Source: Centroscyllium fabricii (Eukaryota). Taken from it: 64,000 bases of DNA. Below, in pieces: positions 11,174 through 64,000 of the stretch (positions are counted from its first letter, which is position 1; every line of letters begins with the position of its first letter). Position numbers and translations under genes: made by a program. A model generated the notes under the pieces. That model was not told the origin of the DNA and did not search any database. It worked only from the letters and a program-made list of their open reading frames with translations. The stretch lies in the NCBI GenBank assembly GCA_051313645.2, contig JBNRSN020000010.1, forward strand, positions 76,570,001-76,634,000. The letters run 5' to 3'.

Positions 11174-11511
11174 TTGAGGGCGGCTCGGTGGCACAGTGGT
11201 TAGCACTGCTGTCTCACAGCACTGGAGACCCGGGTTCAAATCCAGCCTCGGGTACTATCTGTGTGGAGTTTGCACATTCTCCCCGTGTCTGCGTGGGTTT
11301 CCTCCGGGTGCTCCGGTTTCCTCCCACAGTCCAAAGATGTGCGGGTTAGGTTGATTGGCCATGATAAATTGACCCTTAGTGTGTTAGGGGGATTGAATAT
11401 ATGGGGTTACGGGGATAGGGTGGGATATGTGTTGATGCAGGCTCGAGAGGGATCGAGGGATATAGGGCCCCGGCCTGCTAGTCTAGAACGCCCGATCCCA
11501 AGTCGACCTCG

Positions 11512-11544
<33 letters not shown>

Positions 11545-17834: not shown

Positions 17835-17911
17835 CATCCATACCCATCAGAAGAGCAGAAGAAACAGTTAGCCCAAGATACGGGACTCACAATCCTACAA
17901 GTGAACAACTG
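17835..17911 (+). CDS. MEIS1/MEIS2: MEIS homeodomain coding exon (equivalent to mammalian exon 8), [25 protein letters not shown](W); paralog MEIS1 vs MEIS2 unresolved
   Basis: A poly-T tract and GCAG acceptor end at 17834. The 77-nt exon runs CATCCATAC...AACAACTG and is followed by the donor GTGAGT at 17912. The translation is the MEIS TALE homeodomain loop (PYP) plus helices 2-3. Confidence 0.97.
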
Positions 17912-18636: not shown

Positions 18637-18870
18637 NNNNNNNNNNNNNNNNNNNNNNNNNNNNNNNNNNNNNNNNNNNNNNNNNNNNNNNNNNNNNNNN
18701 NNNNNNNNNNNNNNNNNNNNNNNNNNNNNNNNNNNNNNNNNNNNNNNNNNNNNNNNNNNNNNNNNNNNNNNNNNNNNNNNNNNNNNNNNNNNNNNNNNNN
18801 NNNNNNNNNNNNNNNNNNNNNNNNNNNNNNNNNNNNNNNNNNNNNNNNNNNNNNNNNNNNNNNNNNNNNN
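18637..18870. other. N run (234 nt), gap or masked sequence
   Basis: Seen directly. Confidence 0.99.
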
Positions 18871-22529: not shown

Positions 22530-22950
22530 AAGAAGAACTTGCATTTCATGACCTCAGGACATCCTATAGCATTTCACAGTCAATTAATTACTTTTGAAGA
22601 GTTTTGATTTAGGGAAATGTGGCAGTCAATTTGGACGAAACAGCAATGAGATAAATGACCAGATAATCTATTTTAGTGACATTGGTTGAGGGCTAAATGA
22701 TGGTCAGTTAATCAGGAGAACTACCCTTCTTTTCTTTGAATAGTGGCATGGCACCTTTTATGTTCACCTTAGAGGAGCTTGGTTTAACATCTCATCTGAA
22801 AGGCAGCACCTCTGACAGTGCAGCACTCCCTCAGTACTGCACTGGGAATGTCAGCCTGGATCATGGGCTCAAATCTCTGGAGTGGGAGTTTGAACCCGCA
22901 ACCTACTGACTCAGAGATGAGAGTGCTACCCACTGAGCCACAGCTGACAC
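22530..22950 (-). mobile_element. DeuSINE (SacSINE1-like) tRNA-derived SINE
   Basis: Reverse tRNA head ttgaacccgcaacctactgactcagagatgagagtgctacccactgagccac. Deu-like domain gacagtgcagcactccctcagtactgcactgg. L2-type tail aagaacttgcattt. Confidence 0.8.
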
Positions 22951-22954
22951 CAAT

Positions 22955-23350
22955 CCTTACTCCCCACAAATTGCAGCTCATTCGGAACGCCTCAGCTCCT
23001 ACCTTTATCTGCACAAAATTCCACATTCCCATTGCCCATCTGTACCAAGCTTCATTGGCTGCCCCTGCTCAAGTTAACTGAATGCAAGATCCTTATCCTT
23101 GCTTTTAAACAACTCCGTGGAATCATCCCAGCCCACCTCAGCTATCCCCTCCAATACCTATTTACACCTTGTTCCCCATTCTCTCAATTCTACCATTGGT
23201 AGCCACTGTTTCAACCACCATATCTATACTGTTTGGAATTCCCTTCCCATATCACTCCGCCTTGCCATCTCCCTTCCTGCTTTTAAGAACCTCCTAAAAC
23301 CCTTCTCTTCAACCATGTACCTGAGGAGCACTATTACAAATGCAAGGTAC
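22955..23350 (+). mobile_element. Old degraded L2 LINE 3' fragment
   Basis: Resembles the reverse complement of the L2 copies at 34510 and 46965 (HKLQLIRN..., WNSLP...). Confidence 0.6.
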
Positions 23351-23863: not shown

Positions 23864-24705
23864 GGGGGGAATTTTCATGTCCCCGTGAGTCGGGGTTTTG
23901 GGCTGCCCGGCCGGCAAAATAGCGGAACCGGCGGGTCCCGCCCCACCCCCCCGCCGGATCCCCGCTGCTTTCTCATTTTCGCCCGCCCAGATTCCCCGCC
24001 CCGAAACCTTCCTGCCACCGACCGGCGGGGATGGGTTGTCACCTCGTTAAGGGCCCTTAATTGGCATCTTTAATGCGATTTTAAGGGCCCTCAGCCATTT
24101 TGCAATGTTTTCTGCCCTAACCCCACCACCTTAAACCCCGCTGGGTGAAACCCAGCAGGAGCACAGCGCTGGTTATTACTTTTGGACTATAACCTCGTGT
24201 TGTGTGACTTCTTGAATTTATTACTTTCTCCTTTAAGGTGTGAAGGACATGCTGGCAAATGCTTGGCTTGCCTCCAGCATCTTAGAGGAGTAAGTACCTC
24301 TGTTCTGGCTTCAGCATCAGCTGTGAACAGAAACTGAGCAATCTCAGTTCTGATCATGTCCTCACAGCTGGTGCGAGCTGTGAGGGATTCGGAGCCCGCC
24401 TGCCCACCTGTCAGTCACCAGCACTTGGCCTTTCCCATTGGCTCCACTCCACTGTGATGTCACAGTGGAGTGTTTCCATGGGAACTAACAACAACCAGTG
24501 CTGGAACTGTCAATCAAAGTGCTCGCAGCTCCGCTGCAGCCCGACTCGATTGACCTAATTACCTCCCGCTCCCGCCGACGGGGATTTAACAACCTCATTA
24601 AACTAAAATTGCGTGGCCTTCCCAGCTGTTTGGGTGGGCGGGACCGGAAGCCGCCCAGACCAATCCCCGCCAGGTTCCTGCCCTTCCGGCAAAGTCCCCC
24701 CCCCC
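23864..24705 (+). mobile_element. Non-autonomous PIF/Harbinger-like element, family A copy 2
   Basis: TIRs GGGGGGAATTTTC / CAAAGTCCCCC(n) with a 3-bp TSD CAC on both sides. Confidence 0.78.
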
Positions 24706-25690
24706 CACGTTTCTATTTATTGTAGACATATTTGATGCAACCGCACTATTTTCTGTCGAGCAGTAGTATTGTCAATGTGGTAACATCAATGTCACAAATC
24801 AATGTCTGTAAACAAAAATTGATGGCTTGCAAACCTGAAATATCTCATGACATGGGCCCCTTTAATACTTGTGAGCAAGATATCGTGATATTAAAAAAAA
24901 AGTGAACCTGGAAAGATTATACAGTTGCTTAGAGACAGGTCAAAATTATGGGCTAATATTGCAATAATATTATATCTGAACAGAGAATTGTATATTAAAG
25001 CTAGATTTTTTTCCCTTGTTTGAGGTACCAAGTTTTTTTCTTATTAATATCTGCAGCGGCAGTTGTGTGATGTAGCACACTCAGAGTCAATGTGGCACAG
25101 GTTGTGCGCATAAATCAACTTTAATTTTAAGGTGGGTGGCAGCAAGGAAATGGTATTGAATATAGACAGAGAAAAATAGACTAAAACAGAGTGAAGGATG
25201 CAGTGTACACAAATAAGCAGCTTAATGCATCTTGGCACACAGTGTAAGCCTTGTAGGAGCTCGAAGAGCCTCAGGCAATCTGTGAGTTGAATAGCAATTT
25301 TATTACTTTGTCATTAAACCAATTTCACAGCAGTATTGTTTGTTAATGAGCAGCAGCAAACGAGTGAAGATGTCACACAGTGGAATAGCAGTGAGATTTG
25401 TGACCAAGGACTGCATCACTCAGATGAAAAGGCCATCGAAGGCTATAAAAAGGAACAATTTAGGGGGGGAAAAGCAGTCAGTCTGATATTTCTGAGCTAA
25501 CAGCTGTAGGAATAATGTCAGTATAAAACTCGCTAAACCAGATACGAAGAACGGTGTAGCAGGTTGTGCTTTTAAACTGTTAAGCGAGGGGAAAGAGCAT
25601 CTATTTAAATTCACCTACGTTATGCATTACGTTTTGTAAAATAAAATATTCTTTTGTTTAATGACATCTGCATTACCAGAAGTCTTTGTA

Positions 25691-26043
25691 CAGGAAACTC
25701 TCTTAACCGACACCTAAATATCTGGAAATCTCTCTTAATCGGCAAAATTCAGGAGTAGGTTCAGGTAAGTTTTATTATGTATTAGTGGCCGTGTAACCGG
25801 GGTTCCTGGATCTATGGCCGTGTAACCGGGGTTCCTGCACCTGTGGCCGTGCAACAGGGACTCCTGGATCTGTGGCCATGTAACTGGGACTCCTGCACAA
25901 GTGCCGTGTAACCGGGGCTCCTGCACCTGTGGCCGTGTACGGGGCTCTCGTACCTTGGTAAGTATACCTCTCTGTAATCCGGACTTTTTGATCAACTGGC
26001 AACATGCCGGTTCCGTCGGTGCCGGATAAAAACAAGTTTCCTG
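25691..26043. mobile_element. Tc1/mariner (pogo/Tigger-like) MITE containing a 29-bp minisatellite
   Basis: TA|CAGGAAACTCTCTTAACCG ... CGGATAAAAACAAGTTTCCTG|TA. Confidence 0.75.
25787..25949 (+). repeat. 29-bp minisatellite, about 5.6 copies (GGCCGTGTAACCGGGGTTCCTGSAYCTRT)
   Basis: Tandem units read directly. Confidence 0.9.
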
Positions 26044-26050
26044 TATAATA

Positions 26051-26409: not shown

Positions 26410-26544
26410 TACAACACATGAGTTTGGGAAATACATTATTGATTGGACAAATAACACTACTCTCACTAGCTGCTATCTTTTATTTGTGGAATACAGACTA
26501 TGGACGTTTTTACAGCAACTCCTTCCCATCCTGTGAGATTTATA

Positions 26545-27314
26545 GGGGGCTAAATTGGTTAGCGCAGAAAAAGTGGCGCTGACCTGGGCGATGCGCTATT
26601 TTTAGCGCAAGCTCATCGCTGGCGCTAAAAATGCCAATATTCGTCACATCGGCCATTCCGTTTGGGCGGGCCCTAAATCGGGCAGACCGCCTCGCTCTTC
26701 GTGCGAAGTGGCCGAATACCTGGGCGCCGTTGCTGCGCTGCGCGAGGGAGACCGCAGCGGCGGCCTGCGGAACGGCAGGCCGGCCTCCCCCATTAAAGGG
26801 GAGGTGCCTAGCGCGGCTGCAGCGAGAGCCCCGCAGGGCCGCTGAGGGACTGGGAGACGCCTAACAAGTCCAGCACTCGGGGGAAGTGGCGGGCTCAGAT
26901 GAGGGAAGCCTCACTCCACCGGGGAGCAGCGGGGGAAGCCGAGGGGGAAGGTGCTGGTGGTCGGCCAGCAATAAAAATGGCCGACTGCCGCACTTGCCTT
27001 TAAGCAGCGATCGGGCGCTGCTGTTTGTACAGAAAAAAGGTGGCGCGGGCAGAGCGCCGCAATAAAACGGCGGGCGCTGCCCAATTTCGGACGCGCAGTG
27101 CCTCCCAGACGCTGCGCGGCCTGATGACATCATTCAGGACATCCAGCTGGGCGCTAAATTCGTAAAATTCGTTGGGTCGCTAACAGTTAGCCCCCAGTTT
27201 AGCGCCCAGCTGAATTTAGCGTGGGGCACTATTTTTGGCGCTAATTCGGCGCTGGCCCATTAGCGCCCATTTTGGGAGTTAACGGGCCGGCGCTAGAGCG
27301 CAAATTTCGCGTCC
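26545..27314 (+). mobile_element. GC-rich PIF/Harbinger MITE, family C copy 1
   Basis: ATA|GGGGGCTAAATTGG ... CAAATTTCGCGTCC|ATA, with many TAGCGC/GCGCTA subterminal motifs. Confidence 0.82.
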
Positions 27315-27539
27315 ATAGTTTAAACTATTTAATTTGCTTCAGTGCAAAGAGGTTTTGGCTTAGTATCAATGAAAATTGCATCCTGTAATTCTGGTTTATC
27401 ACCAAATCACATCTACTCAGTGACGTGTGCCCACCTCTAGGAGGCAAGCTCACTCCACTTAGGCTCACACCTGCTGCAGTATAACTGCAATCTAAGATGA
27501 CACTTTATGCATAGTGTACTAAGTAGAATATGGTACTAA

Positions 27540-28295
27540 GGGGGCTAAATTGGCGGTCTAGCGCCAGCCCGTTAGCACCCAAACTGGGCGCTAATTGGGC
27601 GTTACACAATTAGCGCTCGCGCCCAGCGCGAAGTCCCGGCGAGCGCTAAGTTGGGGGCTAACTGGTAGCGCCCCAACGAATTTAGCCCCCAGCCGGCTGA
27701 TGTGAATGACGTCATAACATTGTGCAATGCCTGGGAGGCGCCCGCAACTGAAATTGGGCAGCACCTGCTGATTTATCGCTGGGCGCTGCCCGCGCCAGCC
27801 TTTTTGGGCCGTAACTGCAGTGGGGGAGCGCCGCTTAAAGGGGAGTGTGGTGGTCGGCCATTTCTATTGCTGGCCGACTGCCAGCACCCTTTCCCTCTGC
27901 CTCCCCCGCTGCTCCCCCGGCGGGGTCAGGCCTCCAGCAACTGAGCCCAGCACTTCCCTCCAGTGCCGGGCTCCTTCTGGCGATTCTGATCCCACGGCGG
28001 CCCCGCGGGGCTCCAGCTGCAGCCGCGCTAGGCCCCTCCCCTTTAATCGGGGAGGAAGGCCTGCAGTACCGCGGGCCGCCGCTATGTGCTCCTTGGCGCA
28101 GCGACGCGCCCACGCCCCGATATTCGGCCGCCTCACACCAAGAGCGAGGGGGCCCGCCTGCTTTAGCGCCCGCCCTCCCATTATGGGCGATGCAGGCGAA
28201 TTTCAGCCCTAACAGCGTCAGCGATGAGCTGGCGCTAAAAATAGCGCAGCGCCCAGGTCAGCGCCACAAAACGTGGGCTGACCAATTTAGCCCCC
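27540..28295 (-). mobile_element. GC-rich PIF/Harbinger MITE, family C copy 2 (inverted relative to copy 1)
   Basis: TAA|GGGGGCTAAATTGG ... CCAATTTAGCCCCC|TAA, a perfect 14-bp TIR with TAA TSD. Confidence 0.9.
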
Positions 28296-28584
28296 TAAAT
28301 GTATTCATCTCCGATTGTGACATAAACTTTGAATATATTTGTGTAAAAAAGCACGATAACGTTAATGTCCAATTTGCATTGGATAAAAGGAAAGAAAGAC
28401 GATTTCTATAGCGCCTTTCACGACCTCAGGATGTCCCAAAACGCTTTACTACCAATGAAGTACTTTTAAATTGTAGTCACTGTTGTGGGATAGTTGGGAA
28501 TTTATCTTCTGTGAAACTCTTCCTTTTAAAACAAAAGTGCTCAAGCACCCTCAAAATGATGATAGGTTGCATAAACTTGGCTTG

Positions 28585-34509: not shown

Positions 34510-35320
34510 ACAACAACAACTTGTATTTATATAGCGTCTTTAATGTAGTAAAACGTCCCAAGGCGCTTCACAGGACTATTATAAGACAAAACAAAATTGC
34601 CACAAAGCTTGGTCAAAGAGGTAGGCTTTAAGGAGCATCTTGAAGGAGGAAAGAGCAGTATAGAGGCAGAGAGGTTTAGGCAGGGAATTCCAGAGCTTAG
34701 GGCCTAGGCAACAGAAGGCACGGCCACCAATGGTTGAGCGATAATAATCAAGGATTCTCAAGAGGGCAGAATTAGAGGAGCGCTGATATCTCGGGGGCGG
34801 GGGGGTGGTTGTGGGGCTGGAGGAAATTCAGAGATAGGGAGAGGCGAGCCCATGGAAGGATTTGAAATCAAGAATTTTGAAATCGAAGCGTTGCTTAACT
34901 AGCAGCCAATGTCGGTCAGCGAGCACAGGCGTGATGGATGAACGGGACTTGTTGCGAGTTAGGACACAGGCAGTCGAGTTTTGGATCACCTCAAGTTTAC
35001 GTAGGGTAAAATGTGGGAGACCAGCCAGGAGGGCATTGGAATAGTCAAGTCTAGAGATAACAAAGGCATGGATAAGGGTTTCAGCAGTGGCTGAGCTGAG
35101 GCAAGGGCGGAGACGGGTGATGATACGGATGTGGAAATAGGCGGTCTTGGTTATGCTGCAGATAAGTGGTCGGAAGCTCATTTCAGGGTCAAATATGACA
35201 CCAAGGTTGCGAACAGTGTGGTTCAGCCTCAGACAGATGTTGGGGAGAGGGATGGAGTCAGTGGCTAGGGAACAGAGTTTGTGGCGGGGACCGATAATAA
35301 TGGCTTCGGTCTTCCCAATA
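34510..35320 (-). mobile_element. L2 LINE 3' fragment
   Basis: Minus-strand ORF VRNLGVIFD...ETLIHAFVISRLDYSNALLAGLP, with a (TTG)n tail at 34510. Confidence 0.9.
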
Positions 35321-35654
35321 TATAATGCCGTTAGATTCTGCTGTGGGACCTTCATTAATTCCAGAACAAAACCTACACCAGCTCTCAGCAGATGTAGATT
35401 CCGTTGGGACAATCAGAGGCACATGGGGCAGGATTCCCAGGGTAGCCAGAGAAAGCCCCCAGACAGGCCCGCTAAAGTGCAGGCAGAAAAAGCACTACTC
35501 CCTGCCGCCCCAACCCCCAAACCACCACCAAGATTTGCTTTTCGCTGTAAAAGGGGTGGAAAGGCAGCTGATCTAGGTTCCAATCATTTTCCAATCCCTG
35601 ACAGAATTACATTGAAATTTGAAGCAACTTACTCATGATGGGCTGTGATCCAGA

Positions 35655-38600
35655 TTCACTCAGGTATCTCATGGTGGACTATGATCTAGGTTCACTCAGG
35701 TATCTCATGGTGGACTATGATCTAGGTTCACTCAGGTATCTCATGGTGCACGATGATCTTGGTTCACTCAGGTATCTCATGGTGGACTATGATCTAGGTT
35801 CACTCAGGTACCTCATGGTGGACTATGATCTAGGTTCACTCAGGTATCTCATGGTGGACTATGATCTAGGTTCACTCAGGTATCTCATGGTGCACTATGA
35901 TCTTGGTTCACTCAGGTATCTCATGGTGGACTATGATCTAGGTTCACTCAGGTATCTCATGGTGGACTATCATCTAGGTTCACTCAGGTACCTCATGGTG
36001 GACTATGACCTAGGTTCACTCAGGTACCTCATTGTGGACTATGATCTAAGTTCACTCAGGTACCTCATGGTGGAGTATGATCTAGGTTCACTCAGGTACC
36101 TCATGGTGCACTATGATCTAGGATCACTCAGGTACCTCATGGTGGAGTATGATCTAGGTTCACTCAGGTACCTCATGGTGCACTATGATCTAGGTTCACT
36201 CAGGTACCTCATGGTGCACTATGATCTAGGTTCACTCAGGTACCTCATGGTGGACTATGATCTAGGTTCACTCAGGTATCTCATGGTGGACTATGATGTG
36301 GTTCACTCAGGTACCTCATGGTGCACTATGATCTGGTTCACTCAGGTACCTCATGGTGGACTATCATCTAGGTTCACTCAGGTATCTCATGGTGGACTAT
36401 GATCTATGTTCACTCGGGTACCTCATGGTGGACTATCATCTAGGTTCACTCAGGTACCTCATGGTGGACTATGTTCTGGGTTCACTCAGGTACCTCATGG
36501 TGCACTATGATCTGGTTCACTCAGGTACCTCATGGTGGACTATGATCTAGGTTCACTCAGGTACCTCATGGTGGACTATGTTCTAGGTTCTCTCAGGTAC
36601 CTCATGGTGGACTATGATCTAGATTCACTCAGGTACCTCATGGTGGACTATGATGTGGTTCACTCAGGTACCTCATGGTGCACTATGATCTAGGTTCACT
36701 CAGGTACCTCATGGTGGACTATGATCTAGGTTCACTCAGGTACCTCATGGTGGACTATGTTCTAGGTTCTCTCAGGTACCTCATGGTGGACTATGATCTA
36801 GGTTCACTCAGGTACCTCATGGTGGACTATCATCTAGGTTCACTCAGGTACCTCATGGTGCACTATGATCTAGGTTCACTCAGGTACCCCATGGTGGACT
36901 ATGACCTAGGTTTACTCAGGTACCTCATGGTGGACTATGATCTAGGTTCACTCAGGAACTTCATGGTTATCTGTGATCTAGGTTCACTCAGGTACCTCAT
37001 GGTGCACTATGATCTAGGTTCACTCAGGTACCTCATGGTGGGCTATGATCTGGTTCACTCAGGTACCTCATGGTGCACTATGATCTAGGTTCACTCAGGT
37101 ACCTCATGGTGGACTATCATCTACGTTCACTCAGATACCTCATGGTGGACTATGATCTAGGTTCACTCAGGTACCTCATGGTGAACTATCATCTAGGTTC
37201 ATTCAGGTACCTCATGGTGGACTATGTTCTAGGTGCACTCAGGTACCTCATGGTGGACTATGATCTGGTTCACTCAGGTATCTCATGGTGGACTATGATC
37301 TAGGTTCACTCAGGTACCTCATGATGGACTATGATCTAGGTTCACTCAGGTACCTCATGGTGGACTATGATGTGGTTCACTCAGGTACCTCATGGTGCAC
37401 TGTGCTCTAGGTTCACTCAGGTACCTCATGGTGGACTATCATCTAGGTTCACTGAGGTATCTCATGGTGGACTATGATCTAGGTTCACTCGGGTACCTCA
37501 TGGTGGACTATCATCTAGGTTCACTCAGGTACCTCATGGTGGACTATGTTCTAGGTTCACTCAGGTACCTCATGGTGCACTATGATCTGGTTCACTCAGG
37601 TACCTCATGGTGCACTATGATCTAGGTTCACTCAGGTACCTCATGGTGGACTATGATCTAGGTTCACTCAGGTACCTCATGGTGGACTATGTTCTAGGTT
37701 CTCTCAGGTACCTCATGGTGGACTATGATCTAGGTTCACTCAGGTACCTCATGATGCACTATGATCTAGGTTCACTCAGGTACCTCATGATGGACTATGA
37801 TCTAGGTTCACTCAGGTACCTCATGGTGGACTATGATGTGGTTCACTCAGGTACCTCATGGTGCACTATGATCTAGGTTCACTCAGGTACCTCATGGTGG
37901 ACTATGATCTAGGTTCACTCAGGTATCTCATGGTGCACTATGATCTAGGTTCACTCAGGTACCTCATGGTGGACTATGTTCTAGGTTCACTCAGGTACCT
38001 CATGGTGGACTATCATCTAGGTTCACTCAGGTACCTCATGGTGCACTATGATCTAGGTTCACTCAGGTACTTCATGGTGGACTATGACCTAGGTTCACTC
38101 AGGTACCTCATTGTGGACTATGATCTAGGTTCACTCAGGTACCTCATGGTGGAGTATGATCTAGGTTCACTCAGGTACCTCATGGTGCACTATGATCTAG
38201 GATCACTCAGGTACCTCATGGTGCACTATGATCTAGGTTCACTCAGGTACCTCATGGTAGAGTATGATCTAGGTTCACTTAGGTACCTCATGGTGCACTA
38301 TGATCTAGGTTCACTCAGGTACCTCATGGTAGACCATAATCTAGGTTCACTCAGGTATCTCATGGTGGACTATGATCTAGGTTCACTCAGCTACCTCATG
38401 GTGGACTATGATCTAGGTTCACTCAGCTACCTCATGGTGGACTATGATCTAGGTTCACTCAGCTACCTCATGGTGGACTATGATCTGGTTCGCTCAGGTA
38501 CCTCATGGTGGACTATGATCTAGGTTCACTCAGCTACCTCATGGTGGACTATGATCTAGGTTCACTCAGCTACCTCATGGTGGACTATGATCTAGGTTCA

Positions 38601-41600
38601 CTCAGCTACCTCATGGTGCACTATGGTCTAGGTTCACTTGGGTACCTCATGGTGCACTATGATCTAGGTGCACTCAGGTATCTTATGGTGGACTATGATC
38701 TAGGTTCACTCAGGTACCTCATGGTGAACTATCATCTAGGTTCACTCAGGTACCTCATGGTGGACTATGTTCTAGGTGCACTCAGGTACCTCATGGTGGA
38801 CTATGATCTGGTTCACTCAGGTATCTCATGGTGGAATATGATCTAGGTTCACTCAGGTACCTCATGATGGACTATGATCTAGGTTCACTCAGGTACCTCA
38901 TGGTGGACTATGATGTGGTTCACTCAGGTACCTCATGGTGCACTATGATCTAGGTTCACTCCGGTACCTCATGGTGGACTATCATCTAGGTTCACTCAGG
39001 TACCTCATGGTGGACTATGTTCTAGGTTCATAAGAACATAAGAAATAGGAGCAGGAGTAGGCCAATCAGCCCCTCGAGCCTGCTCCGCCATTCAATAAGA
39101 TCATGGCTGATCTGATCCTAACCTCAATTTTATTTTTACTCTCCACCCCGCCCAAACCAATGTAATCACTTTGGAGAGGTGAAAAACCACACATGGCCGC
39201 TCTCAACCTAGCCTCACGTCCACTTACCAGCCCGTTCACCATAACCCCTAATTCCCTTTAATTCCAGGAAACTGTCTATCTCAGTTTTAAATTTATTCAA
39301 CGTAGTAGCTTCTACAGCTCTCTGGGGCAGCAAATTCCACAGCCGCACCACCCTCTGAGTAAAGAAGTTCCCCCTCATCTCAGTTTTAAAATGGGAGCCC
39401 TTTATTTTAAGATTATGCCCCCTAGTCCTAGTCTCACTCACCATTGGGAACATCCTCACCGCATCCACCCGATCAAGCCCTCTCACAATCTTATATATTT
39501 CAATAAGATCGCCTCTCATTCTTCTGAACTCCAATGAGTAGAGGCCCAATCCACTCAGCCTCTCGTCATATGTTAGCCCCCTCATCCCCGGAACTAACCT
39601 AGTGAATCTTCTCTGCACTGCCTCGAGAGCAAGTATGTCCTTTCTTAAATAGGGACACCAGAACTGCACGCAGTATTCCAGGTGTGGTCTCACCAATACC
39701 CTGTACAACTGCAACAAGACCTCCCTGCTTTTAAACTCAATCCCCTTATCAATAAAAGCCAACATTCCGTTGGCCTTCCTTACCACCTGCTGCACCTGCA
39801 TATTAACTTTCTGTGTCCCCTGCACCAGGACCCCAGTTCACTCAGGTACCTCATGGTGCACTATGATCTGGTTCACTCAGGTACCTCATGGTGCACTATG
39901 ATCTAGGTTCACTCAGGTACCTCATGGTGGACTATGATCTAGGTTCACTCAGGTACCTCATGATGCACTATGATCTAGGTTCACTCAGGTACCTCATGAT
40001 GCACTATGATCTAGGTTCACTCAGGTACCTCATGATGGACTATGATCTAGGTTCACTCAGGTACCTCATGGTGGACTATGATGTGGTTCACTCAGGTACC
40101 TCATGATTCACTATGATCTAGGTTCACTCAGGTACCTCATGGTGGACTATCATCTAGGTTCACTTAGGTATCTCATGGTGCACTATGATCTAGGTTCACT
40201 CAGGTACCTCATGGTGGACTATGTTCTAGGTTCACTCAGGTGCCTCATGGTGGACTATGATCTGGTTCACTCAGGTACCTCATGGTGCACTATGATCTAG
40301 GTTCACTCAGGTACCTCATGGTGGACTATGATCTAGGTTCACTCAGGTACCTCATGGTGGACTATGTTCTAGGTTCTCTCAGGTACCTCATGGTGGACTA
40401 TGATCTAGGTTCACTCAGGTACCTCATGGTGGACTATCATCTAGGTTCACTCAGGTACCTCATGGTGCACTATGATCTAGGTTCACTCAGGTACCTCATG
40501 GTGGACTATGACCTAGGTTCACTCAGGTACCTCATTGTGGACTATGATCTAGGTTCACTCAGGTACCTCATGGTGGAGTATGATCTAGGTTCACTCAGGT
40601 ACCTCATGGTGCACTATGATCTAGGATCACTCAGGTACCTCATGGTGCACTATGATCTAGGTTCACTCAGGTACCTCATGGTGGAGTATGATCTAGGTTC
40701 ACTTAGGTACCTCATGGTGCACTATGATCTAGGTTCACTTAGGTACCTCATGGTGGACTATGATGTGGTTCACTCAGGTACCTCATGGTGCACTATGATC
40801 TAGGTTCACTCAGGTACCTCATGGTGGACTATCATCTAGGTTCACTCAGGTATCTCATGGTGGACTATGATCTATGTTCACTCGGGTACCTCATGGTGGA
40901 CTATCATCTAGGTTCACTCAGGTACCTCATGGTGGACTATGTTCTGGGTTCACTCAGGTACCTCATGGTGCACTATGATCTGGTTCTCTCAGGTACCTCA
41001 TGGTGCACTATGATCTAGGTTCACTCAGGTACCTCATGGTGGACTATGATCTACGTTCACTCAGGTACCTCATGGTGGACTATGTTCTAGGTTCTCTCAG
41101 GTACCTCATGGTGGGCTATGATCTAGGTTCACTCAGGTACCTCATGGTGGACTATGATGTGGTTCACTCAGGTACCTCATGGTGCACTATGATCTAGGTT
41201 CACTCAGGTACCTCATGGTGGACTATGATCTAGGTTCACTCAGGTACCTCATGGTGGACTATGTTCTAGGTTCTCTCAGGTACCTCATGGTGGACTATGA
41301 CCTAGGTTCACTCAGGTACGTCATGGTGGACTATCATCTAGGTTCACTCAGGTACCTCATGGTGGACTATGATCTAGGTTCACTCAGGTACCTCATGGTT
41401 ATCTGTGATCTAGGTTCACTCAGGTACCTCATGGTGCACTATGATCTAGGTTCACTCAGGTACCACATGGTGGACTATGATCTGGTTCACTCAGGTACCT
41501 CATGGTGCACTATGATCTAGGTTCACTCAGGTACCTCATGGTGGACTATCATCTACGTTCACTCAGGTACCTCATGGTGGACTATGATCTAGGTTCAGTC

Positions 41601-43020
41601 AGGGACCTCATGGTGCACTATGATATAGGTTCACTCAGCTACCTCAGGGTGGACTATGATCTAGGTTCACTCAGCTACCTCATGGTGCACTATGGTCTAG
41701 GTTCACTTGGGTACCTCATGGTGCACTATGATCTAGGTGCACTCAGGTATCTTATGGTGGACTATGATCTAGGTTCACTCAGGTACCTCATGGTGAACTA
41801 TCATCTAGGTTCACTCAGGTACCTCATGGTGGACTATGTTCTAGGTGCACTCAGGTACCACATGGTGGACTATGATCTAGGTTCACTCAGGTACCTCATG
41901 ATGCACTATGATCTAGGTTCACTCAGGTACCTCATGATGGACTATGATCTAGGTTCACTCAGGTACCTCATGGTGAACTATCATCTAGGTTCACTCAGGT
42001 ACCTCATGGTGGACTATGTTCTAGTTGCACTCAGGTACCTCATGGTGGACTATGATCTAGGTTCACTCAGGTACCTCATGATGCACTATGATCTAGGTTC
42101 ACTCAGGTACCTCATGGTGGACTATCATCTAGGTTGACTGAGGTATCTCATGGTGGACTATGATCTAGGTTCACTCGGGTACCTCATGGTGGACTATTAT
42201 CTAGGTTCACTCAGGTACCTCATGGTGGACTATGTTCTAGGTTCACTCAGGTACCTCATGGTTCACTATGATCTGGTTCACTAAGGTACCTCATGGTGCA
42301 CTATGATCTAGGTTCACTCAGGTACCTCATGGTGGACTATGATCTAGGTTCACTCAGGTACCTCATGGTGGACTATGTTCTAGGTTCTCAGGTACCTCAT
42401 GGTGGACTATGATCTAGGTTCACTCAGGTACCTCATGATGCACTATGATCTAGGTTCACTCAGGTACCTCATGGTGGACTATGATCTAGGTTCACTCGGG
42501 TACCTCATGGTGGACTATCATCTAGGTTCACTCAGGTACCTCATGGTGGACTATGTTCTAGGTTCACTCAGGTACCTCATGGTGCACTATGATCTGGTTC
42601 ACTCAGGTACCTCATGGTGCACTATGATCTAGGTTCACTCAGGTACCTCATGGTGGACTATGATCTAGGTTCACTCAGGTACCTCATGGTTATCTGTGAT
42701 CTGGGTTCACTCAGGTACCTCATGGTGCACTATGATCTAGGTTCACTCGGGTACCTCATGGTGCACTATGATCTAGGTTCATTCAGGTATCTCATTGTGG
42801 GCTATGATCTAGATTCACTCAGGTACCTCATGGTGGACTATGATCTAGATTCACTCAGGTATCTCATGGTGGACTATGATCTTGGTTCATTCAGGTATCT
42901 CATGGTGAACTATGATCTAGGTTCACTCGGGTATCTCATGGTGGACTATGATCTAGGTTCACTCAGGTATCTCATGGTGGAGCATGAGATTTGGATGTTG
43001 GGTTCACTCCGGTACCTCAT
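35655..43020 (+). repeat. 36-bp tandem satellite GGTTCACTCAGGTACCTCATGGTGGACTATGATCTA, about 180 units, interrupted by a CR1
   Basis: Head-to-tail units with no spacers. 35-bp variants (gatctggtt, gatgtggtt) shift the frame. It generates the (LGSLRYLMVDYD)n ORFs. Confidence 0.98.
39031..39835 (-). mobile_element. Young 5'-truncated CR1 inserted in the satellite
   Basis: Uninterrupted 203-aa ORF2 C-terminus (39214-39825), (TTCTTATG)n tail, and TSD GTTCA at 39026-39030 and 39836-39840. Confidence 0.95.
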
Positions 43021-44878
43021 CCAAGTGGCCATTCTTCAGGTATGAGCTTACCTAACATGAAGGGCAACATTGTCGAACCTAATCCTGCCCTCAACTGACA
43101 TCTTCATATGTACTTTCCAGCGGAGATTGCTGGATAACACTCAGAAGTGGAAACCTTGGCTAACTTTCTCCATCCCTAACTCAACGGTGCCAAGGCCAAT
43201 TGCAGCACGATGATTGCAGCGGCAGCTGAGGTTTCAATATGGCACCTTGCTGATTAAATACCTCAGTATCACCCTAAGCAATTAAATCACCCACTGACCC
43301 ACCAGGGAGGTCATTTTTTAGGGCAATATTGTTTTGCTATATATATATGATATATAGTAAGATTTATAACTTTTTTATATATATATATATGTTCAAACTG
43401 TGACAATCAAATGATGTTCAACATTCGTCTTTGTATAGTCACAGGTCTTATCACTAACATTAATGTTATTTGTACAATCACATCATTCCTATCCCATACC
43501 ACTCATTTTTCAATTACAATCAGAACATTGAATTCACATCTTTGAAATAGTAAAGTGATCTTTAATCAATCACCAATATCGCACTCGCATGCTAACCAGC
43601 TAACATCACTTGCTCAAACAAAACTTGTATTTCACAGGGGCTTTCTAATATCCTCAATGTAGGAACATTAGTGATTCATTAAAGCATTGAATGAATATAA
43701 TTTCCATTTTATTTACTGTTTATATTTGTATGTGTGAATTCCTATACTGTAGGCTTAGTGGGTGGATTATTAAAACATGTCATAATGTAAAGGCAAGATA
43801 GCTATTCTATAGCACAACTTATTTGTGTTGATTTTTCCTTCTTTCTGATGAATTTTAAATGCTTTAAATATTTAGCTGGAAATTTTTTGGATAATTTTAA
43901 TTGATTTTCCAATGCGATCACAAAATATAAATTTATTTTAAAAAATCAGGTACCTGTTATTACAAAGTCTGGTTGTAAGTTTGCTGAACTACAGTAGATC
44001 CCTATTACCACGTGCAGGACAAACTTATTGCTCATATCCAGATTTGCACAAAACAGGACTGACTGTACCAGTACGAATCAGGAACAAGTTGGGACCTGAT
44101 CAAAATTTGCTACTCATCTTAATTTCTGGCTTGACATATACCATGGATAAAAGAAAGAACTTGCATTTATATAGGACATTTTCACCTCTCTATCGGAATG
44201 TCCCAAAGTGCTGCACACATAATGGATTACTTTGAAGTGCAGTCACTGTTGCCGAGTTGGAAATGTAGGAGAAATTATTGAGAACATTTAGGCCGTTGAT
44301 AGATTCTGATTCTTGCTCTACACATACTGTCCTCACAAAGTACACATAATGTCATGTGTAATATTGTTACATACTGCAGTCTCCCTCATGTTGCACCATG
44401 AATCTGTGGTGATCTTTTCAAACAACTTGCATTATGAAAATGATTACTGCAAGCAACTTCATGATAGATAATGGTCCTTGGCTGTAATTCTCTCAGCCTG
44501 GTGCCCCAAACTCCACCTTGGTGATTCAGTAAGATATTACTACATCACACCCTACTAAATGGAAACTTGGATACTGCCACTTTTAACACTGTGGTCACAC
44601 AGACATTACACTTATCAAGAGAGCTGAGTCATGATACCGTCACAGGAGTAGACAATCCACGAATCCTGGGGTCAGGTCTCTGCACCAAGAATGAGTATCG
44701 CAGAGTTTAGGTTTGGATGTTCCATGGACCTGCTGAGTACAAGTGTGATATGGTCCCCACTGCTTATATCGGGTGTGTTGGTGTTTACGTGGTTTTTTTA
44801 ATTCATTCTTGGGATGTAGGCTTCGTTGGCAAGACCGGCAGTTATTGCCCATTGCAAGTTGCCCTCCAGTACTTAATA

Positions 44879-47604: not shown

Positions 47605-50434
47605 TAGGGTTGTAAAGGGCTGGAAAGTTTCCGGTAAATTTCCGGAAATTTTCCATGGGAAGTTTAGCTTGGGAATTTTGGTAATTTTGCCCAAAACAGC
47701 ACATACTAGCATAATATTGTTTTTTTTGTATTTCTTTCTTTTTTTCCCACAGGTCCTCTCTTAAAATTACTAACAGAGATGGAATCTTAATTATTAAGGA
47801 ATTTCTTAATCAATATATGTTTATCTTCTTACTTGTCTTGTTTTAATAATTACAAGTTTTGTGTGTGACTGTGAACAAATGTGTCCTGAGTGAGTGGATG
47901 AGTGATTAGCTCCCTCTATTTGTAATGTTTGCATATTCAATTGTGATTGGCCTGCAGGCATCTGTAAGACTGCTATAGTTTTTTCAAGATCCAGGTTAGG
48001 GGTCCTGAGGGAAGTCATTTTGTTTTCTGCTGATGTTGTGATGATGCAGTAAGTAAATCAGACTTTATACCAAATAAACCAGTTACTTGTTGAACTCTGT
48101 TGTCCTTCAATTTAAAATATACAAAATAATACATTATTGGGGATGTAGCGTCGTGTGTGTACTGGTCATGCTTCCATCACATGGAGCATCAGCAAAAATG
48201 TACTCACCCTGTTGCAATCGTGCTGATCGACCGCAGTTCGACACAGAGATGAATGCCCTTTATTTCTCTGCATAGAACAATGCCACGTTTACCGTCGGAT
48301 GTGTGGATGTATTTTACCCCAGGCATTAAAGATGGAAAGACTGTGTACATATGCAAACAGTGTACAAAGCCATATGTAAAGAATGCCACAAAGATGCAGC
48401 AGCATTTATCCAAATGCAACAACTTCACTCAAAGCTCACAGCAGTCAGCCCAGAGTTCCTCTGCTTCCATTCAAGAAGATGATGGTTCTCATTCAGCGCC
48501 AGGCTCCTTATCATCAGCAACTCCTGGCCCACTTGGAAGGTTCTTTGATACAATGGATAACCATAGCCAGACGAATGCAGATGAGTGCCTTGCTCGAGCT
48601 GTATATGCAACAGGCTCACCCCTCATGCTCACAGCCAATGTGTACTGGAAGAGATTTTTCAATGTTATTTGCCCTGCAAACTGTCCTCCCACCAGACATG
48701 CTTTGTCTACTTATTTGCTGGAGGCTGAGTATAACAGAGTCCAAGGAACGCTCAAAGAAACAATAGCGATGGCAGACTGTGTTGCAGTTATCTCAGATGG
48801 GTGGTCAAATGTACGAGGGGAGGGCATCATAAACTACATCGTCTCCACTCCTCTCCCAGTGTTCTTCAAGAGCACAGACACGAAGGACAACAGACACACA
48901 GGCACATACATTGCTGATGAGCTGAAGGCAGTCATCAACGATCTTGGATCACAAAAGGTCTTTGCAGTAGTTACTGAAAATGCTGCGACTATGAAGGCTG
49001 CTTGGGCTCAAGTGGAGAAGGCCTACCCTCATATTATGTCTATTGGGTGCACAGCTCATGGGCTTAACCTGCTCCTCAAGGCCATCATGGGTTTGAGAAC
49101 CATGGAAGCACTGTACAAGAGAGCCAAGCAAGCTGTTAAGTATGTCAGAGGAAAACAGGTAGTTGCAGCAACCTACAACTCCAAGCAAATGACAAAAACA
49201 AGAACACCACACTGAAGCTTCCCAACAACACTAGATGGGGTGGCGTTGTCATAATGTACAACAGCCTTCTGGAGGGTAAGGAGTCGCTGCAAGAAATGTC
49301 AATATCCCAGTCTGGGGATATGGAAACCACCATCAAGAAAATACTGCTGGATGATGTGTTTTGGGAGAGAGTGGTTAGCAGCCTTAAACTACTCTCACCA
49401 GTAGCATCTGCAATTACTCAGATTGAAGGAGATGACGCTGTCTTGTCAGATGTTCTCAGGCTTTTTACTGATTTAAAAGAACAAATCAGCATTGATCTAC
49501 CCACATCCCTGCTGCTCAAAGCAGAGGAGAAGGCAATTGTTCAATTCATACAGACGCGTCAAGAATTTTGTGTCAAGTCGATTCATGCTGCAGCATACAT
49601 GCTGGACCCAAAGCATGTTGGGAGACCAATACTTTCTGGAGAACAGATCAACAGCGCTTAGTGTGATTTCTACCCTCTCACACAATCTTAATCTGGATGT
49701 GGGCAAAGTTCTGGGAAGTCTGGCAAAGTTCCCTACCAAGCAAGGTCTTTGGAATGGGGACAGGATATGGGAATCATGCAAGCATATCAGTGCACATACC
49801 TGGTGGAAGGGACTTTGTGCACCTGAGGCCCTGTCACCTATTGCATCGGTGATACTCCAAATCCCACCTTCATCAGCGGCCTCTGAACAAAACTGGTCAC
49901 TTTTTGGGAATACGCATACAAAGGTGCGCAACAGGCTGACTAACAAGAGAGTGGAGAAACTGGTGGCTATCCGGGCGAACCTACAACTTATTGAGCCAAA
50001 TACAGAGGTGTCCACCGCACAGCTAGACAGTGACACAGAGGAGGAAATGGGCACGTCAGAGCCAGAGTCAGAGAATCAGGAGGAGCAATGATGAGTAGAA
50101 GACTCAGAAGACTCATGAGTAGAAGACTCAAAGGGACAACATAAGGACAAATTACAGGCTAAATAAGCTGACACTCTTTTTATTTTATTTTAAATGGGTC
50201 CTTTTTGTGGGGGTTCAATAAAGTTCAAAATTATAACCTAAATAAAGTTTTGAAAGCCTGTTTTTATTTGTATGGAACAGTATGTCTATTTTGATGACAA
50301 AGATAATATAAGGGTCAGAGACAAAAACCATCAGTGTGCAAAAAAACTCAAAATTCCCATAAATTCCTATAAATTCCCGAAAATTCCCATGGAAAGTTTC
50401 CTCTTTTAAAAATTCCTGGAATTTTGCAACCCTA
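47605..50434 (+). mobile_element. Full-length hAT DNA transposon (2.83 kb)
   Basis: TIRs TAGGGTTGTAAA / TTTGCAACCCTA, 8-bp TSD GTGATGGG / GTGGTGGG, and subterminal GGAAATT/AATTCC repeats. Confidence 0.95.
48280..50091 (+). pseudogene. hAT transposase (BED zinc finger, DUF659-like, C-terminal dimerisation domain) with two frameshifts
   Basis: Motifs VWMYF...CKQC...QHLSKC, SDGWS, VVTENAA, CTAH, TRWG and SSAASEQNWS...RNRL. Frame breaks near 49195 and 49655. Confidence 0.92.
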
Positions 50435-54526: not shown

Positions 54527-57500
54527 TGTAGCGTAGCCACTCAAGAGAGACATCCAGTCTCTCTAGGACACAGAATCCACATTTCCCGAGTGGGCCCGCC
54601 CCCGTTTCCCCAATAGATAAGTTAGATCAACGGTTACGGTCCCTGACTGGTCCGGAGGGCTGTCACTCAAGAGCCCCATGATGCTTTGTGTTTTCGCGCC
54701 ATTTTCCAGCAGTTCTGTGTGGATGAAGTTGAATAAAGACTTGTTTGAATTTGCTCCGCTGTTTTCCTCCGTTTCTTAATATTTAAAGAGTGGGAAACTA
54801 CTGTTCCCCACAATTGGTGACCCCAAATGTCAGACATAGAAAACGCTGACCCGAACACGCCTGCCGTGGCCGACCAGAACGAACGGCCATCGACTACCAG
54901 TCTCCCTGCCTTTTAGGAACACCAAGCAGCCGCTTGGTTCATTCAAACGGAGGCACAATTTTGATTACGACGCATCACTCACGATGAGGACCGCTATCTC
55001 CTCGTTGTTGCAGCCCTGCCGAGCCACGTTGCCGTCGACCTGCTCCGGGACCCGCCGCCAGCCAACAGGTACGCTGCCGTTAAGAAGCGACTGTTTCAGG
55101 CCCACAACCTACCGGAGGCCGTGCGGGCCCGGCAACTTCTCGAACTCCTGGTTCTCGGTGATTCCACGCCCACACGCTTAATGAACCGTATGCTCGCCCT
55201 GCTTGGCGACCACAAGGACTGCCCTTTGTTCAGGGCACTCTTTATCAACCTGCTTCCGCAGCCGGTGCAATCCGCGTTAGCGAACATTAAAGGTGGGGAC
55301 TATGCCGATTTGGTCGCCGCTGCAGACCACGTCTGCCTGTGTACGCCCTCCACGTGCGCCACCACGAGGCCCCCAGCGCCCATGCCGCAACCAACGCCTC
55401 GACCGCAGCTGGAGTTTTGCTATTATCATGCACGCTTCGGCCCGAAGGCCCACCGCTGCCGACCACCTTGTTCCTTCGACGGCAAGGTGGCCCAACCCAA
55501 ACCCAATGCTCCGAGCCAGCCTTGCTGCCAAGGATCAGCTGCTGCTAACGCCATGGGCACAGCAGGTCAGTTGCTATATATTACAGACTCTCTGTCCGGG
55601 CAACAATTCCTCTGCGACACAGGGGCCCAGCTCAGCATCTTACCGGCTACGCGCTCCGATCGACGGTCCAGCCGCAGCAGCCCACTCCTCGTGGCAGTGA
55701 ATGGCGCAGCAATAGCCATGTTCGGTAAGAGGTGAGCGGAAATCCGACTGGATGACTAACGATTTGCCTGGGATTTTGTCACGGCCAATATAGCACATCC
55801 ATTGCTGGTCGCGGATTTCCTGTGTGCCCACGGCCTGCTCGTGGACGTCCGGGGCAGACATCTGATGGATGCATCTACTTTCGCATCGTTCCCCTGCCAA
55901 CGAAGTGATGGCCAACCCCTCGTAAGCTTCTGCTCTCCTCCTCCGGGCGATAAGTACGCGCACCTGCTGGCCGAGTTCCCAACCATCATGCAGCCGACCT
56001 TCTCCGATGGGTCAGCCAAACACGGCGTCCAACATCATATCGCCACTACTGGTCCACCGGTCTTCGCCCGAGCCAGACGCCTCGACCCTACAAAGATGGC
56101 GGTGGCCAAGCAGGAATTCTCGGCCATGGAGAAGTTAGGGAATCATTCGACCTTCCAACAGCCCGTGGTTGTCCCCACTCCACATTGTCCCCAAGCCAGG
56201 AGGCGGTTGGCGACCGTGTGGTGACTACCGGTGCCTTAACGATGCCACCACGCCGGACAGGTAACCAGTGCCACATATTCAAGACTTTTCGGCCCATTTG
56301 GTGGGCACTACCATTTTTTCGAAAGTCGACCTCATCCGGGGTTATCACCAGGTCCCGGTCCATCCGGATGACATCCAAAAGACAGCCGTTATTACACCAT
56401 TCGGACTTTTTGAATTCCTGCGCATGCCCTTTGGGTTAAAGAACGCGGCACAGGTTTTCCAACGGTTGATGGACTCTGTCCTTCGGGACTTGGACTTTTT
56501 GTTTGTATATCTTGATGATATTTTAGTTTCTAGTGCTAACGAATCTCAACATGTAATGCACCTGCGCTCACTTTTTCAGAGATTGGCCCATCATGGCCTG
56601 ATTGTTAACCCAGTTAAATGCCAATTCAGCCGCCCTGAAAATGATTTTGTAGGGCATCACATCTCCCCCGGCGGGAGCTATCCCTTTGCGCTCCAAGGTG
56701 CAGGCGGTCGCGGACTTTCCCCAACCTAACTCGGTTAAGTCACTCCAGGAATTCCTTGGAATGGTTCATTTTTACAACCGATTCATTCCCAAGGTGGCCT
56801 CCATCATGCGCCCCCTGTACGAAGCTACCAGGGGCAAGACCGGCAAGGATAGTCTTCAGTGGTCGGCCGATATGGTTGAGGCTTTTCGCCTCGCTAAGTC
56901 GGCTTTGGCTGAAGCCACCCTTTTGACCCACCCCATTCCGGAAGCTCCACTGTCGCTCACGACCGATGCCTCGGATCATGCCATTGGCGCCGTTCAGCAG
57001 CAGTGGGTGGATGGTGCCTGGCAGCCCCTCGCCTTTTTTTAGCCGCCAGCTGCGGAAAAGTGAGCTCTCGTATAGCACGTTCGATCGAGAACTGCTAGCT
57101 CTTTTTCTCGCAGTGCGGCATTTTCGTTTTCTTTTAGAGGGCCGTCCTTTTACGGCCTACATGGACCATAAACCCCTCATTTTTGCCCTGTCCAAAGTCA
57201 CAGAGCCTTGGTCAGGTCGCCAACAGCGCCACCTGAATTTCATTTCTGAGTTTACAACGGATATTCGCCACGTGTCCAGTAAAGATAATGTCGTTGCAGA
57301 CTGCCTGTCCCGTCCTTCTCTCAATGCAGTCCACGTTGGTGTTGATTATGCTGAAATGGCATGCACCCAGCGAGCGGACACTGAGCTGCAGGCTCTTCGT
57401 GCTGCGTCCACCAGCCTGACCCTAGCATACGTCCATTTTAACGACGCCGGCATGACCCTTTTGTGTGACGTGTCCGTCTCCACCCCAGGCCATTGGTGCC

Positions 57501-58350
57501 TACCTCTTGGCGCAGGCGCATTTTCGAGTTGGTCCATGGCCTCTCACACCCGGGAATGCGGGCTTCTCAGAAGCTTATGTCCGCCAAATTCGTTTGGCCA
57601 GGCCTGCATAAAGATGTGTGGAACTGGACCAACACCCGCCAGGACTGTCAGCATACCAAAGCTCCCTTGCAAATTTTTCCGATGCCCGAGCGGCGCTTTC
57701 ATCATGTCCATGTTGACCTGGTGGGCCCATTGCCCCCATCGCAGGGTTTCACCCATCTCCTTACTGTCGTAGACCGCACCACTAGGTGGCCAGAGGGCGT
57801 ACCTCTTTCTTCCACCACTGCAGCCGACGTCGCACGTGCCTTCATTTTTTCTTGGGTGGCCCGTTTTGGGGTACCGTCAGACATCACTTCCGACAGGGGC
57901 CTGCAGTTTACCTCTCAACACAAGTGCACCGCATAACTGCGTACCATCCGCAGGCTAATGGCATTTGCGAACGCTTCCACCGCGCCCTTAAGGCTTCACT
58001 CTAAACTAGCCTGGTTGACGCCAATTGTTTGGACAGGCAACCTTGGGTTTTGCTGGGATTGCGATCTGTGCCCAAGGACAACCTCGGCGTTTCATCCGCC
58101 AAACTCATTTTTGGACAGCCTTTGGGTGTTCCAGGAGAATTCTTTCCCTCCACCACTGACCCTTGCTCGGCCGGCGAGCAACTCGCCCAGCTTAACGACG
58201 CAGCGCACGTTTCCTCCCTGTACCCACCTCTCGGCATGGTGCCCGGTCGTCCCACATGCCTACTGAGCTCCGTCGGGCTAAATTTGTCTTTATGCGTCGT
58301 GATGCCCACAGAACCCCCTTGCAGGCGCCTTACACTGGCCCTTTCAGGGT
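54527..58350 (+). mobile_element. Ty3/Gypsy LTR retrotransposon, CsRn1 clade, degenerate and 3'-truncated
   Basis: 5' LTR TG...CA at about 54527-54812, with AATAAA at 54732. PBS TGGTGACCCC at 54815 (tRNA-Trp). Gag starts at 54827 and has CYYH-x9-C-x3-C. Pol motifs: PR LCDTGA, RT YLDD, RH TDAS, IN HVDLVGPLP/ITSDRG/ERFHR. Multiple stops and frameshifts. Confidence 0.95.
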
Positions 58351-58592
58351 GGGCAAGAACATAGGAAATGGAATATAATGTGGAGAAATGTGAAGTTATC
58401 CACTTTGGTAGAAAAAATAGAAAAGCAGAGTATTTTTTAAATGGTGAGAGATTGGGAAATGTTGTTGTTCAGAGGGGCCTAGGTGTCCTTGTACACAAAT
58501 CACTGAGGTTAACATGCGGGTACAGCAAGCAATTAGGAATGCAAATGGTATGTTGGCCTTTATTACAAGAGGATTTGAGGATAAGAGTAAAG

Positions 58593-58805
58593 GGGCTAGA
58601 AATTGGCTGTCCTGCGCCTGCCCGTTAGCGCCCAGAACTTTGGCTGCAGCGCACTAAGAACGAGGGCGGGCATGTGTTTTAGCGCCCGCCCTCCTTCTAT
58701 GGGCGCTAGAGGTAAATTTTGGAGCTAACGGCACCAGCGATCAGCTGGCGCTAAAAACAGCGCTGGTCCGAGCTTAGCGCTACAAAACGTGCCAATTTCT
58801 CCCCC
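58593..58805. mobile_element. Short Harbinger MITE (family C-related) inserted in CR1
   Basis: AAG|GGGCTAGAAATTGG ... CCAATTTCTCCCCC|ATG. Confidence 0.8.
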
Positions 58806-59103
58806 ATGACGTCTTACTGCAATTATATAGGGCCCTGGTGAGACACATCTGGAGTATTGTGCACAGTTTTGGTCTCCTTACCTAAGGAAGGATATACTTG
58901 CCATAGAAGGAGTGCAACGAAGGTTCACCGGACTGATTCCTGGGATGGGGGGATTGTCCTATGAGGAGAGATTGAGTAGACTAGCACTATATTCTCCAGA
59001 GTTTAGAAGATTGAGAGGTGATCTCATTGAAACATACAAAATTCTTACAGGGCTTGACAGGGTAAATGCAGGGAGGATGTTTCCCCTGGCTGGGGAGTCT
59101 AGA

Positions 59104-63403: not shown

Positions 63404-63462
63404 GTTTATTAATGCCAGGAGAAGAATAGTACAACCCATGATCGACCAGTCAAATCGAGCAG
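63404..63462 (+). CDS. MEIS1/MEIS2: MEIS homeodomain coding exon (equivalent to mammalian exon 9), (W)FINARRRIVQPMIDQSNRA; GC donor
   Basis: The acceptor is cccttttctcgtttgtttcag and the exon is 59 nt. The TG|G join with the upstream exon restores W of WFINARRR. The donor is CAG|GCAAGT. SNRA rather than SNRT favours MEIS1/2 over MEIS3. Confidence 0.97.
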
Positions 63463-64000
63463 GCAAGTCTCAAGTAGTAACTTAATTTAACTTAATTTAA
63501 GCCCCGCAGGCACAAATCCACATCAAGTTATTCTTCAGGGGTTCCTTCACCTGGTAAATAAACCTGGCAGCCAGGCATTCTGGGAGAGCTTTTGTCCCAG
63601 AATTCCAATGCAGGGAGCAACCTCACTAATTGGTGTCAACTGAAATTCCCCACCCTCACTTTCCTGAAGCTGCTTTTATTTCTGTTAATAATGGTAATTG
63701 GGCAAATATTCTTGCACCACAAGTAGCTTGCTGAGTGGGTACTGCTGCTGACTCACTGGCCATCTTTTGCAGCCACTTGATGCTTTCCTTACTGCTCACA
63801 ACTCCTTGGTGAATGCGCTTACTTATTTCACCAATGCTGCTGTTTATCACCATTAATGATAGCTGCGGATTGCTTGAAAAGATTACTGCTAAAGTTCACC
63901 TAAATGCATTCGCTGTTTACCAGTTGGTTGGATGAAACATCAAGGAATATATTTTGCACCATTCAATAATTCTAACAAGAAAAGTAAGCATGAGTATGAA

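Follow-up and report, generated by a model that had tools for sequence, protein, structure and literature searches.

That tandem arrays can grow out of short interspersed element (SINE) copies is established, with thousands of human minisatellites and many squamate loci as examples. In squamates, the SINE-derived satellites sSat1-3 are described as running to hundreds of units with alternating sub-variants, a minority carrying both SINE ends (PMC10702118). Arrays derived from transposable elements (TEs) have been reported in a number of 7,276, with flanking direct repeats of 5-20 bp in 300 of them (PMC3389668, PMC9659126), and Alu minisatellites flanked by 5-20-bp direct repeats are likewise described (PMC3389668). 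How the first duplication comes about is presented as a mostly open question, known mechanisms explaining ~6% of cases in one survey (PMC3389668). Accounts of shark repeats feature DeuSINE/SacSINE1, a 463-bp element with a transfer RNA (tRNA)-derived head that is abundant in cartilaginous fishes (PMC5499810, PMC2746220, PMC4824008), and no report of a SINE-derived satellite in sharks or cartilaginous fishes surfaced in literature searches at the level of titles and abstract openings. Here we analyse a tandem array of 36-bp units at 35632-43020 (forward strand) in a 64-kb stretch of DNA from Centroscyllium fabricii (assembly GCA_051313645.2, contig JBNRSN020000010.1, positions 76,570,001 to 76,634,000), called the window below, whose first base is position 1 in all coordinates.

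The array is most likely a new example of the SINE-derived satellite, a type known from reptiles and from Alu. An earlier annotation made from the letters of the window (the sequence-only reading) had proposed that slippage between two CTCAT motifs within one SINE copy gave birth to the array on the spot. We favour, with moderate confidence, a related history in which the satellite was seeded in situ close to the tail of an old SINE-like element, unequal exchange enlarged it from the middle, and a long interspersed element (LINE) subsequently interrupted it.

An array of 183 units split by a LINE fragment

Tandem Repeats Finder (TRF) and a wrap-around alignment both recovered the 36-bp tandem array announced by the sequence-only reading, whose quoted left and right end sequences were also correct. 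The alignment resolved 182 whole units and one split unit, giving 183 homogeneous tandem units where the sSat type calls for four or more. TRF placed its 36-bp call at 35632-42981 (score 9548, 205 copies). That copy number and the 7.4 kb previously given for the satellite both include an overlooked 805-bp LINE fragment in reverse orientation at 39031-39835, so the satellite proper, once this insertion is removed, measures only ~6.6 kb. The parts of the array are as follows.

35632..39030, forward strand: left array block, with 94 whole units and the first 27 bases of the LINE-split unit (wrap-around alignment)
39026..39030, forward strand: GTTCA, a 5-bp target duplication with its right copy at 39836-39840; its inner edge is blurred by microhomology with the LINE
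39031..39835, reverse strand: 5'-truncated LINE 3' end (805 bp) lying within one unit; shares 74.5% identity with 11828-12195 over 365-368 bp
39836..43020, forward strand: right array block, with the remainder of the split unit, 88 units and the terminal CTCAT (wrap-around alignment)

As in other truncated LINEs, the insertion combines homology to the 3' end of a reverse-transcriptase element with a short simple-repeat tail and a short target duplication. The related copy at 11828-12195 continues into sequence encoding RVT_1 (E=9.3e-8); the fragment in the array had no Pfam or PDB match of its own, and we presume that it belongs to the CR1 clade. The order of unit variants runs on uninterrupted across the LINE, and the LINE therefore entered an array that had already become large and patterned; it has remained unduplicated from then on. 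One of its reading frames is open for 207 codons (39217-39837), and because the chance of the frame staying open is 0.32 at 5% divergence and 0.035 at 15%, the insertion is dated only loosely. Relatives of the LINE 3' end in the array lie densely nested at 58300-60700, where several fragments occur in both orientations.

The units diverge on average by 4.5% from their consensus and by 8.0% from one another, comprise 74 distinct sequences among the 182 whole units, and share in 21 cases a 1-bp deletion at one same column. No other copy of the unit was found elsewhere in the window. The unit contains only an 8-bp palindrome, and a special hairpin was rejected (fold z=-0.77 and +1.24), as was a coding role, the reading frames of the array giving no protein-family match above cut-off; a protein search with a chance reading frame of the array returned nothing. 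Most likely the array has no function and is simply tolerated within a long intron.

Probable growth from the middle of the array

Units at the two ends of the array have variants in common that are scarce inside it. A T at column 36 occurs in 13 of 18 edge units versus 12 of 164 interior units; it is present in seven of the first eight units and five of the last eight, and never in more than two in any interior run of eight. A similar relation across the full length of the array is seen in its first unit.

35632..35667, forward strand: leftmost unit, with 6 of 36 bases off consensus; its nearest relative is the unit at 42827, at the opposite end and 7.2 kb away

At least two of the non-consensus bases of the leftmost unit are found together in just 2 of the 181 other units, both far to the right (42791 and 42827). 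With the edge-shared variants and these far-end relatives, the locus looks like a short array whose middle was amplified. Runs of six identical units recur 78 and 117 units apart, also across the LINE (the maximum was four in 200 shufflings of unit order), and a fixed higher-order repeat was rejected, no lag standing out (2.5-3.1 differences). We conclude with fair confidence that the internal evidence favours local birth and growth from the middle.

An error of assembly, with reads reused or collapsed and a true array that is shorter or longer, is a very improbable partial cause of the length and block pattern. An artefact would have to accommodate 74 distinct sequences among 182 units, a 1-bp deletion shared by 21 units at one and the same column, which is not how random read errors fall, and a unit pattern that resumes correctly across the LINE; speaking for it are the recurrence of identical six-unit runs and two N gaps elsewhere in the scaffold (579-870, 292 N; 18637-18870, 234 N).

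Array boundaries and their scars

The array had been thought to fade gradually into related sequence on both sides. We instead observed one odd unit per end, beyond which similarity stops, and rare variants that are equally common at the edges and in the interior. The proposed bounding by CTCAT was borne out at both ends, alongside two further features.

35632..35636 and 43016-43020, forward strand: CTCAT at both array ends, a 5-bp terminal overlap that may have acted as the seeding microhomology
35569..35580, forward strand: left-flank sequence of 12 bp that exactly echoes unit columns 14-25, 51 bp from the array
42971..43015, forward strand: rightmost unit, 45 bp long; at its centre, non-consensus sequence repeats 42969-42976 (8 bp) and then 43018-43024 (7 bp), each in inverted form

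With CTCAT at 35632 and 43016, the locus has a direct repeat in the range of 5-10 bp at both array ends. On the left, no 12-mer of the unit recurs in the window beyond the array except the echo at 35569-35580 (shuffle p=0.001; 0 of 271 background windows), after which comes a local 8-bp direct repeat (35578 and 35589). The 50 bp immediately left of the array are unlike the unit on the same strand (p=1.0). A reading of the left flank as two decayed units was weak (global p=0.08) and was set aside.

On the right, the 8-bp inverted copy reproduces the unit-unit junction just upstream and the 7-bp inverted copy reproduces the array-flank boundary. Two perfect stems of at least 7 bp arose at the right junction in 16 of 3000 shuffles and in 20 of 808 background windows, frequencies that make the stems suggestive rather than strong evidence. 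Template switching or polymerase-theta-type repair typically leaves behind short local copies linked through microhomologies. Past the right-hand scar, a stretch in which 18 of 19 bases are unit-like, together with CTCAT, leads directly into the flank.

The length of the last unit (45 bp) and the inverted copies of adjoining sequence that it carries make it probable that more than simple slippage was involved. The slippage first proposed, from one CTCAT motif to another, is compatible with the 5-bp terminal overlap but leaves three features unexplained: the 45-bp last unit versus the 36-bp amplified unit, the two inverted copies and the recurrence of the central 12 bp of the unit in the left flank. 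The broader proposal of local birth gains from the shared edge variants and from the lone unit 12-mer 51 bp to the left, a support that stops short of the seeding mechanism and of the SINE span.

The templated-looking snippets at both boundaries would also fit break repair at an insertion, in which case the array, perhaps together with its SINE-like flank, originated at another site and was brought in as a block by segmental duplication or reinsertion of circular DNA, and the end scars are insertion marks. We consider such an arrival improbable, given that unit-like sequence (18 of 19 bases plus CTCAT) extends beyond the right-hand scar into the flank, that the window holds no further copy of the unit or of the flanks, and that no convincing target duplication surrounds the whole structure, the best shared flanking word being one 8-mer far from the ends.

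A putative SINE in the right flank

The right array end leads into a 292-bp stretch that ends near an A-box-like motif.

43021..43312, reverse strand: putative old SINE body and head, a single copy in the window with an approximate outer end; we take it to be SINE-like, with the A box in support
43289..43302, reverse strand: A-box-like 14-mer, ~270 bp right of the array, with no B box after it

The motif has one mismatch to what we take to be the A-box pattern and agrees at 13 of 14 positions with a second SINE-like head from the window (shuffle p=0.008), the best result among four heads tried. Of the tRNA-like head claimed by the sequence-only reading, only the A-box-like 14-mer was found: there is no B box, ARAGORN detected no tRNA in the right flank and the region has no unusual fold (z=-0.53). 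Rfam likewise reported no tRNA in the right flank, and it also missed two of two control SINE heads. We liken the right flank to a cartilaginous-fish interspersed repeat; the dozen bases left of the array presumably continue the same element. The left flank, itself without a second copy in the window, matched none of the LINE ends there.

On the reverse strand at ~22460-22960, the window contains a long tRNA-headed SINE-like element with A- and B-box-like motifs, presumably SacSINE1 (DeuSINE), which served as a comparison. By abundance, DeuSINE/SacSINE1 is an obvious candidate parent; the right flank does not align with this element (p=0.18), so a DeuSINE parent was dropped and the SINE parent probably belongs to another family.

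Searches beyond the window added little to this comparison. Full-text motif searches returned 0 relevant SINE sequences, and none was present in the supplements of PMC4824008, PMC5804259, PMC5065162 and PMC11481361. Motif scans of prokaryotic genomes for contaminant copies gave 0 loci and a plasmid blastn search gave no match, negatives that were expected. Protein searches with a chance frame of the flank mostly found nothing, two repetitive proteins matching 19-24 residues in many stretches.

Local birth from anonymous intron DNA, with a right flank that is not a SINE and an A-box match due to chance, would be in keeping with the missing B box, the lack of a tRNA call and of a second copy in the window, and an A-box p value of 0.008 that is the best of four heads tried. 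We nevertheless judge it quite improbable: the Rfam negative extends to both control SINE heads, the B box can be missing from an old copy that has suffered deletions, and the flank is one that we liken to an interspersed repeat of cartilaginous fishes.

A further alternative keeps the SINE but only on one side, the unit deriving from the right-hand SINE-like element, which would end at or near the left edge of the array, with an unrelated left flank and the locus perhaps being one of many. This is unlikely, in that the left flank is connected with the unit through the 12-bp echo, and its dozen bases next to the array presumably continue the same element, although no tool connects the two flanks and the 50 bp left of the array bear no same-strand likeness to the unit (p=1.0). 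The one-sided form is also given as the usual pattern in squamate sSats (PMC10702118).

A proposed history of the locus and the evidence against it

The history we favour, in situ seeding near the tail end of an old SINE-like element, would begin with an old tRNA-headed element that we presume to have lain here on the minus strand. A stretch of ~36-45 bp bounded by CTCAT would then have been duplicated through microhomology-guided slippage or repair, and local template switching probably edited the duplicated stretch; such switching would account for the left-flank 12-bp echo as well as for the pair of inverted snippets within the last unit. We infer the order of these early edits. The 36-bp form may next have been amplified in multi-unit blocks by unequal exchange or conversion, with new variants spreading inside and older ones retained at both ends, where the column-36 variant is now concentrated. 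Finally, by which time the array had its pattern, the truncated LINE inserted into one of its units. That tandem repeats arise from such elements is known, and it is probably harmless.

Several observations weigh against this history. The echo agrees with the unit consensus and not with the leftmost unit beside it, so that the echo either donated the unit core or may have been copied into the flank later, from an array already in place. One of the inverted snippets copies a unit-unit junction and so postdates the first duplication. With respect to the SINE, the minus strand of 43000-43400 yielded no B box when at most one mismatch was allowed, the right flank has no second copy in the 64 kb, and nothing links the flanks beyond one 9-mer, their sole common word of at least 8 bp, which chance allows. 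With respect to growth, the mean left-to-right edge distance (3.1 differences) is not below the left-to-interior (3.1) or interior-to-interior (2.8) distance, and rare variants per unit are not enriched at the edges (0.20 and 0.25) versus inside (0.23). The edge windows and the junction window were picked after inspection of the data, and the units are non-independent. Edge variants in common would, moreover, also come along with a block copied from elsewhere.

A fuller version, in which the locus is a complete two-sided birth site, is a possibility that we put forward tentatively. One SINE copy would have been opened by the 183-unit satellite, its 36-bp seed being a mosaic that template switching assembled out of adjacent DNA; the donor 12-mer, a longer ancestral unit and fold-back scars would still be readable, and a young LINE would serve as internal clock. 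If true, a cartilaginous fish would have a SINE-derived satellite whose growth could be followed step by step, from 1 to 183 units, through orthologous alleles. If the satellite proves to be confined to a single locus with both old ends, a candidate core donor, a datable LINE and unexpanded alleles in relatives, it would provide a clean case study of the first step.

The host intron in a MEIS gene

The location of the array in an intron of a developmental gene, also claimed by the sequence-only reading, was confirmed by two exons of a MEIS homeodomain.

17835..17911, forward strand: MEIS homeodomain exon on the upstream side of the host intron; identical to MEIS1/MEIS2 in PDB at 26 of 26 residues (E=1e-13)
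63404..63462, forward strand: next MEIS homeodomain exon; 19 of 19 residues identical to MEIS1/MEIS2 in PDB (E=8.2e-7)

The intron between them (17912-63403) is 45,492 bp long with GT-AG ends, and the flanking exons join in frame. These exons were spotted by reading the sequence; a Pfam scan that took in 368 of 480 frames of at least 48 residues did not detect the host gene. The two exon peptides do not discriminate MEIS1 from MEIS2. The second exon seemingly ends at a GC donor instead of GT (63459-63470), which we take as a pointer to MEIS1.

Long Meis introns are thought to harbour regulatory elements (PMC3140891), and the disease-linked enhancer block of human MEIS1 is placed in intron 8 (PMC3975059). 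The host intron is probably intron 9, judging from a table in PMC3140891, and we therefore claim no link to that block. Within the window, the evidence examined (protein families in the array frames and fold of the unit) gave no sign of array function or of an effect on MEIS.

Other elements in the window

The same intron holds a 363-bp element resembling a miniature inverted-repeat transposable element (25686-26048), with 14-bp terminal inverted repeats and, nested inside it, a 29-bp minisatellite of 5.7 copies (25785-25947); this second nested tandem array suggests that such nesting is ordinary here. A hAT DNA transposon at 47605-50434 has long frames (DUF659 and a hAT dimerisation domain), 8-bp inverted ends and a target duplication matching at 7 of 8 positions, and it splits a LINE-like fragment, both halves of which match 34524-35213. 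A frameshifted fragment of a long terminal repeat retrotransposon at ~54600-58350 encodes reverse transcriptase, RNase H and integrase domains in a Gypsy-like order.

Two 840-bp copies in the same orientation (9750-10573 and 23864-24702; 91% identical) are probably a young non-autonomous element, and GC-rich 780-bp repeats form an inverted pair at 26543-27319 and 27535-28297 (75% identical, ~215 bp apart). Among SINE and LINE fragments, a full-length copy resembling 5S ribosomal RNA (11473-11586; 58.7 bits) is probably a retrocopy.

Comparison with known systems

Membership of the array in the SINE-derived satellite class is likely, with the B box missing. Set beside human Alu- and TE-derived minisatellites (Haber-Louis; Jurka-Gentles direct-repeat model), the locus has a unit of minisatellite size and a 5-bp end repeat, and the local expansion inside or beside a TE copy that is described for the human arrays is the same course that we propose here. 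It differs from most human TE-derived arrays in having far more units, those without a known mechanism there being mostly of two units, and from human TE-derived minisatellites in its odd-length terminal unit with inverted snippets and its nested LINE.

The resemblance to squamate sSat1-3 as described (PMC10702118) extends to tandem units, their number in the hundreds and alternating sub-variants, and the mean pairwise identity of ~92% compares with up to 94% in the longest cobra sSat locus reported in that study. Squamate sSats are characterized as having units taken from part of a SINE, an extended terminal unit and rare loci with both SINE ends; the counterpart here has a putative SINE parent. 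Unlike the squamate units of ~70-290 nt, the unit here is 36 bp, and whereas a subtelomeric tendency is given for the reptile arrays, this one lies in a fish, in the intron of a developmental gene.

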